Shown: positions 15,104 to 57,581 of the stretch, in pieces
How positions within the stretch are numbered: the stretch's first letter is position 1
How the letters are laid out: the number at the start of each line of letters is the position of its first letter
Source: Eledone cirrhosa
Lineage: Eukaryota
Length of the DNA: 64,000 nucleotides
Direction: 5' to 3'
NCBI GenBank assembly: GCA_964016885.1
Contig: CAXHJY010000127.1
Span: forward strand, 8,245 to 72,244
Translations under genes and position numbers: made by a program
Notes under the pieces: model-generated
Databases searched by the model: none
Seen by the model: the letters and a program-made list of their open reading frames with translations, nothing else
What the model was told of the DNA's origin: nothing

Positions 15104-15457
15104 TATGTAGATAGATAGATAAAGAGAGATGGGGGTAGATACGGGTAAATATATATATAGACAGGTAGATAGGCAGATGGATATGCAGGTAGATATACAG
15201 AGTGGTAGATAGATCTATACACAGGTAGATATATATATATATATATATATGAGGGTAAGGAACCAGGTGCACCAGAGTACTCAATACTTAGGGTAGTAGA
15301 GTGGATATATATATATATATATATATATATATATATATATATATATATATATATATATATATATATATATATACGTTATTCCGGGTTGAATCGGAGGTAA
15401 CCACAGTAAGTAAGGTACTCAATACATAGCAGAGTATAAAAGTTTTAATATAGATGA

Positions 15458-15506
15458 GATTCTACAGGACTAGAACTGTTTCATTCTTTAGAAATCATCA
15501 GGAATC
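15458..15506 (-). ncRNA. Hammerhead ribozyme family F, minus-strand copy
   Basis: GAUUC CUGAUGA U UUC-UAAA-GAA U GAAA CAG-UUCUAGUC-CUG UA^GAAUC. Confidence 0.82.
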
Positions 15507-15510
15507 ATCA

Positions 15511-15563
15511 GAGATTCCTGATGATTTCTAAAGAATGAAACAGTTCTAGTCCTGTAGAATCTC
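15511..15563 (+). ncRNA. Hammerhead ribozyme family F, plus-strand copy
   Basis: 7-bp stem I GAGAUUC/GAAUCUC, intact core, 4-bp stem III, GUA cut after 15556. Confidence 0.85.
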
Positions 15564-15620
15564 ATCTCTCTCTCTCTCTCTCTATATATATATATATATA
15601 TATATATATATATATTATAA

Positions 15621-15727
15621 TGTTTCTGCTTTTGGCACAACGCCAGCAATTATCCCAGTACATTACTGGTACTTTGTCTTTCATCCTTCCGGGGTTGAGA
15701 AAATAAAGTTCGGGATTTGAACTCAGA
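15621..15727 (-). mobile_element. SINE fragment with internal inversion
   Basis: Same family as 3866-4050; segment 15671-15709 is in the opposite orientation. Confidence 0.75.
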
Positions 15728-15830
15728 ATAATAATAATAATAATAATAATAATAATAATAATAAGGACGATATATATATATATATATATATATATATATA
15801 TATATATATATATATATATATATATATATA

Positions 15831-15967
15831 TAGTAATAATAATAAATTTGAAGACTAAAATCCAAAGAGGGCTCGATGAGGATAAATATATATCAAATAT
15901 ATAAGAACTGTAGAGTTAAGGGTGAAAGCAGCGATTCTTTGCTTAAACTTTAATCTGTTATTTTAAC
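15831..15967 (-). mobile_element. Family E fragment with inversion
   Basis: Tail in minus orientation joined to a plus-orientation short arm starting in the stem II loop (GTTAAGGGTGAAA). Confidence 0.8.
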
Positions 15968-52873: not shown

Positions 52874-52957
52874 ATATATATATGCATGTATATATATACA
52901 TATACACACACAGATATATAGATTTATAGAGAGAGACGGAGATAGAAGTGTATGTAG

Positions 52958-55507
52958 GTACAAAACAACACTATGACTACATCACATTAAATATTAAAGT
53001 CTTTACTGTAATACTGTAAATTTTCACAACAATCTGTCCACCAGTAAAGATACTATAAACATTAGTACAAAACAACACTATGACTACACCACATTAAATA
53101 TTAAAGTCTTGACTTTAATACTACAAATTCTCACAATAATCTGTCCACCAGTAATGATACGATAAACATTTAGTACAAAACAACACTATGACTACATCAC
53201 ATTAAATATTAAAGTCTTTACTGTAATACTGTAAATTTTCACAACAATCTGTCCACCAGTAAAGATACTATAAACATTTAGTACAAAACAACACTATGAC
53301 ATCACATTAAATATTAATGTCTTTACTGTAATACTGTAAATGTTCACAACAATCTGTCCACCAGTAAAGATACTATAAACATTTAGTACAAAACAACACT
53401 ATGACTACACCACATTAAATATTAAAGTCTTTACTGTAATACTGTAAATTTTCACAACAATCTGTCCACCAGTAAAGATACTATAAACATTTAGTACAAA
53501 ACAACACTATGACTACATCACATTAAATATTAAAGTCTTTACTGTAATACTGTAAATTTTCACAACAATCTGTCCACCAGTAAAGATACTATAAACATTT
53601 AGTACAAAACAACACTATGACTACATCACATTAAATATTAAAGTCTTTACTGTAATACTGTAAATTTTCACAACAATCTGTCCACCAGTAAAGATACCTA
53701 TAAACATTTAGTACAAAACAACTCGGAAGTTAAGAGTTCAGATAGACATAGCATTTCAATTTTATATTTTCGCACCTGGATTCAAGGGAGAGAAATCATG
53801 TAAAGAAAGAAAAGAGGGGTCCTACCTTCGAACAGGTATCTTGGATTTGTAACGAAAGTGGCGTGGATTTCCTGGAAAGTATAGAAATAAAAATGTAGTA
53901 CATCAAACACACACACACACACACACACATATATATATATATATATATATATATATATATATATATATATATATATATATATATATATATATACACACAT
54001 ATATGCAGACACACATACACATTTATAAACATTTAGTACAAAACAACACTATGACTACATCACATTAAATATTAAAGTCTTTACTGTAATACTGTAAATA
54101 TTCACAACAATCTGTCCACCAGTAAAGATACTATAAACATTTAGTACAAAACAACACTATGACTACATCACATTAAATATTAAAGTCTTTACTGTAATAC
54201 TGTAAATTTTCACAACAATCTGTCCACCAGTAAAGATACTATAAACATTAGTACAAAACAACACTATGACTACACCACATTAAATATTAAAGTCTTGACT
54301 TTAATACTACAAATTCTCACAATAATCTGTCCACCAGTAATGATACGATAAACATTTAGTACAAAACAACACTATGACTACATCACATTAAATATTAAAG
54401 TCTTTACTGTAATACTGTAAATTTTCACAACAATCTGTCCACCAGTAAAGATACTATAAACATTTAGTACAAAACAACACTATGACATCACATTAAATAT
54501 TAATGTCTTTACTGTAATACTGTAAATGTTCACAACAATCTGTCCACCAGTAAAGATACTATAAACATTTAGTACAAAACAACACTATGACTACACCACA
54601 TTAAATATTAAAGTCTTTACTGTAATACTGTAAATTTTCACAACAATCTGTCCACCAGTAAAGATACTATAAACATTTAGTACAAAACAACACTATGACT
54701 ACATCACATTAAATATTAAAGTCTTTACTGTAATACTGTAAATTTTCACAACAATCTGTCCACCAGTAAAGATACTATAAACATTTAGTACAAAACAACA
54801 CTATGACTACATCACATTAAATATTAAAGTCTTTACTGTAATACTGTAAATTTTCACAACAATCTGTCCACCAGTAAAGATACCTATAAACATTTAGTAC
54901 AAAACAACTCGGAAGTTAAGAGTTCAGATAGACATAGCATTTCAATTTTATATTTTCGCACCTGGATTCAAGGGAGAGAAATCATGTAAAGAAAGAAAAG
55001 AGGGGTCCTACCTTCGAACAGGTATCTTGGATTTGTAACGAAAGTGGCGTGGATTTCCTGGAAAGTATAGAAATAAAAATGTAGTACATCAAACACACAC
55101 ACACACACACACACACACACATATATATATATATATATATATATATATATATATATATATATATATATATATATATATATATATATATATATATATATAT
55201 ATATATATATACACACATATATGCAGACACACATACACATTTATAAACATTTAGTACAAAACAACACTATGACTACATCACATTAAATATTAAAGTCTTT
55301 ACTGTAATACTGTAAATATTCACAACAATCTGTCCACCAGTAAAGATACTATAAACATTTAGTACAAAACAACACTATGACTACATCACATTAAATATTA
55401 AAGTCTTTACTGTAATACTGTAAATTTTCACAACAATCTGTCCACCAGTAAAGATACTATAAACATTTAGTACAAAACAACACTACGACTACATCACATT
55501 AAATATT
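52958..55507. repeat. 108-bp satellite with ~1186-bp higher-order repeat
   Basis: Monomer starts at 52958, 53065, 53173, 53281, 53386, 53494, 53602; spacer repeated at 53721 and 54907. Confidence 0.95.
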
Positions 55508-56088
55508 ATACTCTTGACTTGACAATTGATGTAATTGGTCTAAGTTTGGTAATGTTGAGCCGCTCACTGATACAGATACGGTCGCTGAGCCGCTTGTCAG
55601 TCATAAGTCTCATGATATGGTTCTGGAATGTAGAGAGCTTCTGAAGTGACCTTGTCGTCCAGTTAACACAGTCAAGACCGTATAACACAACTGGTATGAT
55701 GTATGTATCAAAGATCTTAGCCTTCAAATGATAGGAAACTCGTTTTGGTGTTAGTACTTCCTTGTTCTTGTTGAAAGCTGCCCAACCTAGAGCGATGCGA
55801 TACTGCGCAGCGACCATTCCACTGTTGTTTGATGATAGTCTGTGACTGAGATATACAAACTCTGTAACTTGAGCAATTTGTTGGTTGTAGATTGTGAGTT
55901 GGAGATTGGCATTGTTGTTATCAGTTGTCATACACTTTGTTTTGGAGATGTTTATGTGTAAGCCAGCCTCCAGCGAATGTTTAGTCAGTACATTCAGAAA
56001 GTCTTGCAGATGAGTTCTAGAGTAACTCATAATGGCGAGATCGTTTGCATAGCTAAGATTTGATAGGATTTTACCTCCTATTTGATAA
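55506..56088 (-). pseudogene. RTE-clade reverse transcriptase fragment
   Basis: SNLSYANDLAIM (YADD-like), GLHINISKTKCM, VTEFVYL, RIALGWAAF, PVVLYG. Confidence 0.9.
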
Positions 56089-56970
56089 ACAGAGGAGCAT
56101 ACTGTATTACTTGTAAATATTCACAATGTGTCACTAGTAGAAGGCTTTAAGTGTGTGAATGAAACCATATGAAACGACATTAAGACATTCTTTGAAAGTA
56201 CAAAATAATACAATGGAAGACTGCATCAGGTTAAATGTTGTAATAGCTATTGTGCTGAATTATTACATAATATTGTAAGAGACAGACAGACAGACAGATA
56301 GATAGAGAGATAGAGAAGGGGGGATATATAGATAGAGAGAGAGAGAGAGAGAGAGAGAGAGAGAGAGAGAGAGAGATGGATAGAGTGAGATAGATAGATA
56401 GATAGATAAATAAATAGAGAGAGAGATAGAGAGAGAGAGAGAGAGAGAGAGAGAGAGTGAATGAGTGAGAGAGATAGATAGAGAGAGAGAGAGAGGCGAA
56501 GGGAGGGAGATAGATAGATAGATAGAGAGCGGGAGAGAGAGAGATAGACGGAGGGAGTGAGATAGATAGATAGATAGATAGATAGATAGATAGATAGATA
56601 GATAGATAGATAGATAGATAGATAGATAGATAGAGCGAGAGAGAGAGAGACGCTCACAGACAGAGAAACAGACAGACACACAGATAGATACATAAAGAGA
56701 GAGATGGGTAGATAGATAGATAGATAGATAGATAGATAGATAGATAGATAGATAGATACATAGATAGATAGAGAGAGAGACAGACACAGGCAGACAGACA
56801 GACAGACAGAGAGAGACAGAGATATAATGTTAGAAAGGGAGAGGGAAACTATATATGTATATATATATGTATATATATATATATATATAAATATATATAT
56901 ATATATATATATATATATATATATATATATATATATATATATATATATATATATATATATATATATATAT

Positions 56971-57240
56971 CAGCAGAGGAGATATTCAATTTGTTGGTAA
57001 TTCAACAAATATAAATGTTTATAACTGATTCAAAGCACTCGACAAGTTTTCTGGAGTAAATATTCAATGATATTAAATAAATGGAAACTATATTTATAAA
57101 ACCATATTTATTCTATTATATATATTTCAAGGACACCAAAAACTTTGGTACGCTTTCATCAGATAAAATACAAAGTTTGTTTTATAAATAATGACATATC
57201 CAGGAAAATACGTTAACGGTTCAAGTTATCCTTGGATAGT
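56971..57240 (-). mobile_element. pLTR family C
   Basis: Reverse complement of ~5185-5430. Confidence 0.82.
57111..57168 (-). ncRNA. Hammerhead ribozyme family C
   Basis: UUUUAU CUGAUGA AAGCGUACCAAA..UUUGGUGUCCUU GAAA UAUAUA UA^AUAGAA. Confidence 0.82.
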
Positions 57241-57356
57241 GGACTTAAAGACAGATTTTTTTCAAAATTGTTAAGATGAGTATGCAAATGAATATGTAAA
57301 TGAGGTTAATATATATATATATATATATATATATATATATATATATATATATATAT

Positions 57357-57581
57357 ACGTAGGTCCCGGGTTGAGTCGGGGATAACCACAGTAAGTAAGG
57401 TACTCAATACATGGCAGAGTAAAATTTTTTTATTTTATAGAAGGAGCTTCTACAGGACTAGTACTGTTTCATTCAGATGAAATCTTCAGGAAGCTGTATG
57501 AAGAAGCTTCCTGAAGCTTCAGAAGCTTCCTGAAGATTTCATCTGAATGAAACAGTACTAGTCCTGTAGAAGCTCCTTCTA
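57357..57581 (-). mobile_element. Family F variant fold-back with two hammerheads (57445-57495 minus, 57524-57574 plus)
   Basis: AGCUUC CUGAAGA U UUC-AUCU-GAA U GAAA CAG-UACUAGUC-CUG UA^GAAGCU. Confidence 0.85.

Follow-up and report, generated by a model that had tools for sequence, protein, structure and literature searches.

A short hammerhead-bearing repeat in (TA)n-rich DNA of Eledone cirrhosa is probably a non-coding Penelope-like retroelement

We analyzed a 64,000-nt stretch of the Eledone cirrhosa genome (assembly GCA_964016885.1, contig CAXHJY010000127.1, positions 8,245 to 72,244 of the forward strand), hereafter the window, in which a repeat family that we term F carries type I hammerhead ribozyme motifs. 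Judging from sequence, we consider F likely, with a probability of roughly 0.72, to be a non-coding Penelope-like retroelement of about 135 nt, present at high copy number within (TA)n runs, whose head-to-head twin hammerheads probably formed during insertion. The motif, its inverted copy, the tail on one side only, the (TA)n flanks, the differing centres and the abundance of the family are direct observations. The initial annotation of this DNA had described F as a covarying hammerhead and proposed that its twins might switch between cleavage and double-stranded RNA (dsRNA). The present evidence reveals no new regulatory switch.

A type I hammerhead descriptor was run on both strands of the window and found complete motifs head-to-head at three loci, so that either strand encodes one, as had been annotated. 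At F1 the sense motif occupies 15458-15506 on the reverse strand (stem I of 5 bp, predicted cut between 15463 and 15462) and its inverted counterpart 15511-15563 on the forward strand (stem I of 7 bp, predicted cut between 15556 and 15557). At F2 the two motifs lie at 29451-29501 (reverse, stem I of 6 bp) and 29502-29550 (forward, stem I of 5 bp). F3 carries a C-G variant of stem I at 57445-57495 (reverse) and an inverted arm at 57524-57574 (forward) that is identical to the sense arm across 59 nt. The family has two further members in the window, complete twins thus accounting for 3 of its 5 loci. F4 is a single arm on the reverse strand (21571-21624, motif 21622-21574), situated between (TA)n runs and having neither twin nor tail. 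F5 is a degenerate forward-strand copy outside (TA)n (13556-13613) that retains the core and stems II and III, has lost the 3' strand of stem I and is preceded by a short inverted remnant. With strict settings the descriptor returned 8 matches in the window, seven of them arms of F and one from another family, as opposed to 0 in each of 200 local shuffles.

In the customary numbering of hammerhead positions, the core elements CUGANGA, GAAA, A15.1-U16.1 and H17 are present in order in all 7 complete arms of F, with GUA as the cut triplet. Three helices surround this core: helix I, which is open, measures 5-7 bp depending on the arm, helix II consists of 3 bp and a U.U, and helix III of 4 bp. 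Across the arms 92% of cells are paired, compared with 33-45% when partners are slid. The base of helix II is U.U in every arm, in place of the usual G10.1-C11.1 pair. Loop III can pair with itself, through 4 pairs in F1 and 6 in F3, and a dimer with swapped stems III is predicted to lie 10-12 kcal/mol below two monomers. The axolotl hammerhead HHR_Amex2 likewise has U.U at the base of helix II; as a monomer it is reported to cleave 22% within one hour, and as a dimer it does better (PMC7229834), and the hammerhead dimer model is reviewed in PMC6765202. Five phage loci (L001-L005, at about 401-426), representing only 2 distinct sequences, harbor type III hammerheads with the same helix II as F, U.U base included, and the same start of helix III.

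The unit of about 135 nt carries the hammerhead at its 5' end, has a tail of 60-77 nt on just one of its arms, includes a small 3' hairpin and is flanked by (TA)n at either side. Read in sense order, a full copy begins with (TA)n and an inverted duplicate of the 5' part, continues through a short centre to the hammerhead and the tail, and ends in (TA)n. All three whole insertions have their sense on the reverse strand. F1 (15373-15567) comprises an inverted 55-nt copy of the 5' end and a 6-nt spacer, with (TA)n on the left and (CT)n(TA)n on the right. Its tail (15373-15451) reaches 77 nt beyond the arm and includes, at 15425-15415, an 11-nt motif common to a second repeat family, A; the 3'-terminal hairpin (15380-15395, U-A version, 4 bp with an AC-rich loop) is, by analogy, a candidate start signal for reverse transcription. 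F2 (29367-29567) has a 1-nt spacer, arms of 66-72 nt, a 60-nt tail and (TA)n on both sides. F3 (57358-57579), a variant subfamily similarly flanked, has a 76-nt tail, a C-G variant of the 3' hairpin (57365-57380) and a 28-nt centre composed of repeated pieces of the element's own 5' end. Four of the five loci sit in (TA)n. Perfect (TA)n runs of at least 12 nt make up 13.7% of this microsatellite-rich window, which holds about 15 hammerhead motifs when all families are counted.

The three twins thus differ in their centres (6, 1 and 28 nt) and in the ends of their arms. This is so even for F1 and F2, whose sense arms are 98.5% identical. Each inverted arm shows 0 mismatches to its own sense arm across 55-66 nt and 7-9 to the other subfamily, and when family A was considered along with F, the own sense arm was closest, or tied for closest, at 6 of the 7 loci. 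Both arms therefore likely derive from one template per insertion.

A single arm of F1 (15375-15512) was compared with contigs of three public sequencing runs, X2, X13 and X10, from 24 listed, among which no RNA run appeared. The arm was present in 9,906 contigs of X2, 6,973 of X13 and 4 of X10; the depth summed over contigs, which reaches 2.1 million in X2, should not be read as a copy number. In X2 and X13 together, 11 opposite-strand joints connect the element's 5' end (15500-15505) with a 5'-truncated arm (15424-15462), and in 262 contigs of X2 and 188 + 89 of X13 stem I runs into unrelated sequence. The 3' end of F meets TA-rich loose ends in both runs. X2 alone shows direct tandem joints, in which the hammerhead part recurs at intervals of about 69-83 nt and the unit has no tail; such joints could form stem-III-swapped dimers, as modeled above. 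The ratio of hammerhead to tail depth, which would be 2 if all copies were twins, was about 1.15 in X2 and 0.56 in X13 and is too crude to use. Among the joints listed, none links 15500-15506 to itself, which is uninformative since contigs of this kind collapse palindromes. An assembly artefact was considered as the source of the twins and rejected because arms have diverged at some loci (134/148 and 59/65), family ends recur and opposite-strand joints appear in two independent runs.

Fold-back is not peculiar to F. From a self-comparison of the window we picked 16 fold-back loci, of which A2 and A3 are almost the same sequence and do not count as independent. In 13 of the 16 an extension of 46-103 nt is present on one side, the palindromes B3, E1 and G1 being without a tail, and ends recur within families. 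Intact cores on both strands are confined to F1, F2 and F3 (3/16); B1 and C3 are near-twins with altered cores. Family A carries the 3' half of a hammerhead and folds back inside the core in 4 of 4 copies (10322-10527, 11990-12186, 12570-12768 and 16769-16974), and the tail motif that it has in common with F occurs at 10 places.

This layout is consistent with the signature described for Penelope-like elements, namely an inverted, 5'-truncated copy adjoining the 5' end, a tail of 30-40 bp that is frequently present at one end, a bias toward microsatellites and hammerheads in terminal repeats (Craig et al. 2021, PMC8557442). In F1-F3 and in the 11 opposite-strand joints an inverted copy of the 5' part adjoins the 5' end, the tail of F1-F3 is at one end only, as in most fold-back loci, and insertion is biased toward (TA)n. 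Partial direct tandems are absent from the window by self-comparison, the joints in X2 being the only ones found. Pairs of hammerheads 100-700 bp apart on opposite strands, together with many dispersed singles from truncated elements, are likewise on record (Cervera and de la Pena 2014, PMC4209133), so hammerhead pairs on opposite strands were already described for Penelope-like elements. A Penelope-like enzyme is reported to cut and extend both target strands at AT-rich DNA, and two starts of reverse transcription, in an AC-rich stem-loop, to define the tail (Frangieh et al. 2024, PMC11167929).

A possible course of insertion can be outlined on this basis. Source copies would be transcribed, and a Penelope-type reverse transcriptase with a GIY-YIG endonuclease, acting in trans, would nick both strands of the self-complementary (TA)n target. 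Copying would begin at the 3' hairpin and, further inside the element, at an AU-rich site that lies 10-25 nt beyond the cut, and the existence of two such starts would confine the tail to one arm. Both copies would come from one template molecule, either through two target ends priming the same RNA or through fold-back of the first complementary DNA. The joint between them would lie at the near-palindromic 5' strand of stem I, which would duplicate the entire motif; other families would have their joint inside the core. The hammerhead itself probably serves the source transcripts, and it probably does so as a dimer that direct tandem copies form by way of their palindromic loop III. When a twin is transcribed from one flank or the other, a hairpin of 55-70 bp would mask the hammerhead.

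Several observations weigh against a Penelope-like origin. No Penelope-type enzyme was found among three reading frames of the window scanned against Pfam, which gave one weak RVT_1 match, and two scans of metagenomes returned 0 loci. The tail of F is longer than the published 30-40 bp. No Rfam hammerhead model reached its gathering score in the window: the F4 arm scored at best 13.2 bits against a threshold of 48.5, and the F3 arm produced no hammerhead match. For a single arm the predicted minimum-energy structure differs from the hammerhead, other folds being about 3-7 kcal/mol better in a calculation that models no tertiary contacts. Copies of F begin exactly at stem I and not at the cut site, for which a Penelope-like insertion gives no reason. 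Twins are frequent (three of the five F loci, and the near-twins B1 and C3), and their enrichment by selection is possible. From the literature, the (TA)n-targeting Naiads, a clade that occurs in cephalopods, are described without canonical hammerheads (PMC8557442), and hammerhead cleavage of the anole element PAc was reported to be unnecessary for insertion in vitro (PMC11167929). A reverse transcriptase fragment does lie at 55509-56117 on the reverse strand of the window; it is of the long interspersed nuclear element type, has relatives with apurinic/apyrimidinic-endonuclease domains and is not a Penelope-type partner.

Evidence for constraint on the RNA comes from where the changes fall. 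The letters reported for stem I proved correct: AGAUUC/GAAUCU at 15512 (forward) and 29501-29451 (reverse) and AGCUUC/GAAGCU at 57524 (forward), a compensatory change from A-U in F1 and F2 to C-G in F3 that represents one event. Compared over their 51 nt, the F1 and F3 motifs show 8 differences, namely both partners of this pair, N7, 4 letters of loop II and 1 of loop III. All differences beyond the compensatory pair thereby spare core and stems, in agreement with the annotation. When the differences were placed at random, they fitted the fold in 0.036% of trials if treated as 8 substitutions and in 0.61% if treated as 5 events. A second compensatory pair, U-A in F1 and C-G in F3, is found in the 4-bp 3' hairpin, where F2 is broken at another pair (3 sequences). 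In the public runs the stem I change at 15459 accounts for 15% of depth in X2 and 98% in X13, and one contig of X10, a run of another organism, carries it in phase with its partner letter at 15505, the contig being matched across tables by depth and end. Among 40 of 45 variants listed, all lie at 15408-15459 and none in 15460-15506, where clipping at loop II hides variants. Loose-end consensus sequences from several contigs hint at more stem I variants; with 40-70% agreement and no phasing they were not counted.

Formal covariation gives a different answer. In an alignment of 8 arms with few haplotypes, 1 of 13 pairs was altered on both sides; the score was reached in 63 of 500 shuffles and the proportion of paired cells in 182 of 500. 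Covariation within the window alone is not significant. Of the "covarying hammerhead", then, the compensatory pair in stem I is real, and the covariation amounts to that single event. Selection on the RNA fold, which the annotation had also proposed, is supported by the placement of changes, with the phased X10 contig and the second compensatory pair, rather than by covariation statistics. Overall, the hammerhead motif of F is real and apparently constrained.

Such constraint, the complete twins at three of five loci and the high stability of the hairpin predicted for twin RNA are what speak for an evolved switch, in which the twin would be a functional unit toggling between self-cleavage and a long dsRNA hairpin, for instance through alternative transcription starts. 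The masking hairpin itself, suggested by the annotation, was borne out as a prediction: read-through RNA of a twin is calculated to fold at -107 to -131 kcal/mol. On either strand transcription meets the antisense arm before the sense motif, and imposing the hammerhead fold would cost 74-76 kcal/mol, thus the read-through RNA is predicted to be a plain hairpin. Cleavage of a twin would require transcription to begin within the centre, and no two loci have the same centre sequence or the same arm ends. Both-strand intact cores are limited to F1-F3 among the 16 fold-back loci, other families fold back within the core, and the hundreds of contigs in X2 and X13 that leave stem I for unrelated sequence have non-twin 5' junctions. 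The inverted copy is moreover a known product of Penelope-like insertion. We regard the switch as very unlikely. A related idea, which we find doubtful but somewhat less so, is that twins are self-silencing ribozymes: the antisense arm, transcribed first, would hide the hammerhead and let twins accumulate in transcribed regions, in which a lone sense copy would cleave the host's RNA. Introns would become enriched in twins through selection, and the transcriptome would be seeded with very many near-perfect hairpins of 55-70 bp for adenosine-to-inosine editing or small-RNA production. With about 15 motifs in this window, the host genome may rank among the most hammerhead-dense in animals.

The origin of the element could also be read in other ways. 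F may be a retrozyme of the kind without long terminal repeats (non-LTR retrozyme), in which direct tandem source arrays give rise to self-cleaved circular RNA that is reverse-transcribed, the window showing dispersed offspring. This overlaps with a Penelope-like origin because retrozymes are proposed to derive from Penelope-like repeats; a 2026 preprint (10.64898/2026.07.22.740005) connects retrozymes with the terminal repeats of Penelope-like elements and describes monomers that are dispersed. The type I motif, the palindromic loop III and the U.U are as in axolotl retrozymes, and direct tandem joints do occur in X2. However, direct tandem repeats of about 300 bp, each with a type I hammerhead, were found neither in the window, which holds no direct tandem of F, nor in X2, whose tailless unit falls far under the reported monomers, and copies start at stem I instead of the cut site. 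A retrozyme therefore appears possible but tentative. Post-insertion inversion, through fold-back repair of DNA breaks in (TA)n runs and independent of any retrotransposition enzyme, would suit a window so rich in perfect (TA)n, the near-identical arms within a locus and the tail-less palindromes B3, E1 and G1. Yet the duplicated part is always element sequence and ends at inner sites that recur in each family, the centres hold repeated pieces of the element's 5' end, and the layout is typical of Penelope-like insertions, all of which makes this route improbable. Finally, miniature inverted-repeat transposable elements (MITEs) and foldback DNA transposons are defined by terminal inverted repeats at both ends and by fixed ends. 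The inverted arms of F do have TA on both sides, as expected of such a transposon inserting at TA with a hammerhead-like word arising by chance. But the arms miss one terminus, the tail being one-sided, which largely refutes the reading. Neither the length of the arms nor the centre is constant, single arms occur in truncated form and changes follow the RNA fold, so that this last origin is scarcely credible.

Other hammerhead-bearing repeats are scattered through the window. Two more such families, B and C, account for motifs at 5236-5296, 16379-16433, 57170-57109 and 57689-57643 and at 40208-40152, and helix II of family C has the U.U base seen in F. A palindrome of 90 bp that belongs to family B and has no tail (57592-57790) is situated inside the TA-rich flank of F3, such elements clustering side by side. 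On the reverse strand at 13368-13331, about 190 nt from F5, lies a minimal hammerhead with a U3-A8 core variant and a palindromic helix III, a combination described for Penelope-like repeats (PMC4209133). A short type I hammerhead on the forward strand at 16653-16690 scores 31.7 bits against the 34 required by Rfam Hammerhead_1 and sits in a 140-nt island between (TA)n runs. A permissive Rfam scan of 10000-30000 gave, among the 150 of 467 matches listed, mostly microsatellite noise and one hammerhead match at 16650-16694. A hammerhead-like motif with a very long helix II (12244-12328, forward) lies in a 290-nt segment between near-identical copies of family A in inverted order (11960-12216 and 12540-12796). 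Some repeat tails of the window presumably resemble those of octopod short interspersed nuclear elements (SINEs).

We found no published report of F or of a twin switch in the literature searched, from which most subscription journals and supplements fell outside, and repeat libraries may use another label. The main text of a study of O. vulgaris repeats, as far as it was accessible, makes no mention of ribozymes (PMC13282606). If the Penelope-like reading is right, F adds a very abundant family of hammerhead-bearing mini-elements to an animal group for which that literature holds no such report. It would also preserve, in compact natural form, the traces of how Penelope-like elements insert, a cycle that is poorly understood, with its two starts, one template and near-palindromic joint, and many calls of "unknown SINE" or MITE in such genomes would be ribozyme-bearing retroelements.

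Among known systems, F most resembles the hammerheads in the pseudo-long-terminal-repeats of Penelope-like elements (PMC4209133, PMC8557442). Both have a hammerhead in a short non-coding repeat, an inverted copy by the 5' end, a tail at one end, a microsatellite target, opposite-strand pairs and a palindromic loop III. In contrast to those elements, F has no reading frame and measures only about 135 nt, its twins are 1-28 nt apart and not 100-700 bp, its tail is 60-77 nt and not 30-40, its helix III of 4 bp is not minimal, and U.U replaces G10.1-C11.1. With non-LTR retrozymes, especially axolotl HHR_Amex2 (Cervera and de la Pena 2020, PMC7229834; 10.64898/2026.07.22.740005), F has in common the type I hammerhead, the U.U base of helix II, a very high copy number, the lack of protein and a proposed Penelope-like origin, but it takes the form of dispersed inverted insertions in (TA)n, not of direct tandem arrays of about 300-350 nt. 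The anole element PAc (PMC11167929) is similar in the priming of both target strands at AT-rich DNA, the two starts that define the tail and the AC-rich stem-loop. PAc, however, is autonomous and has been assayed, whereas F is known from its sequence and the likeness of its hairpin is an analogy only.

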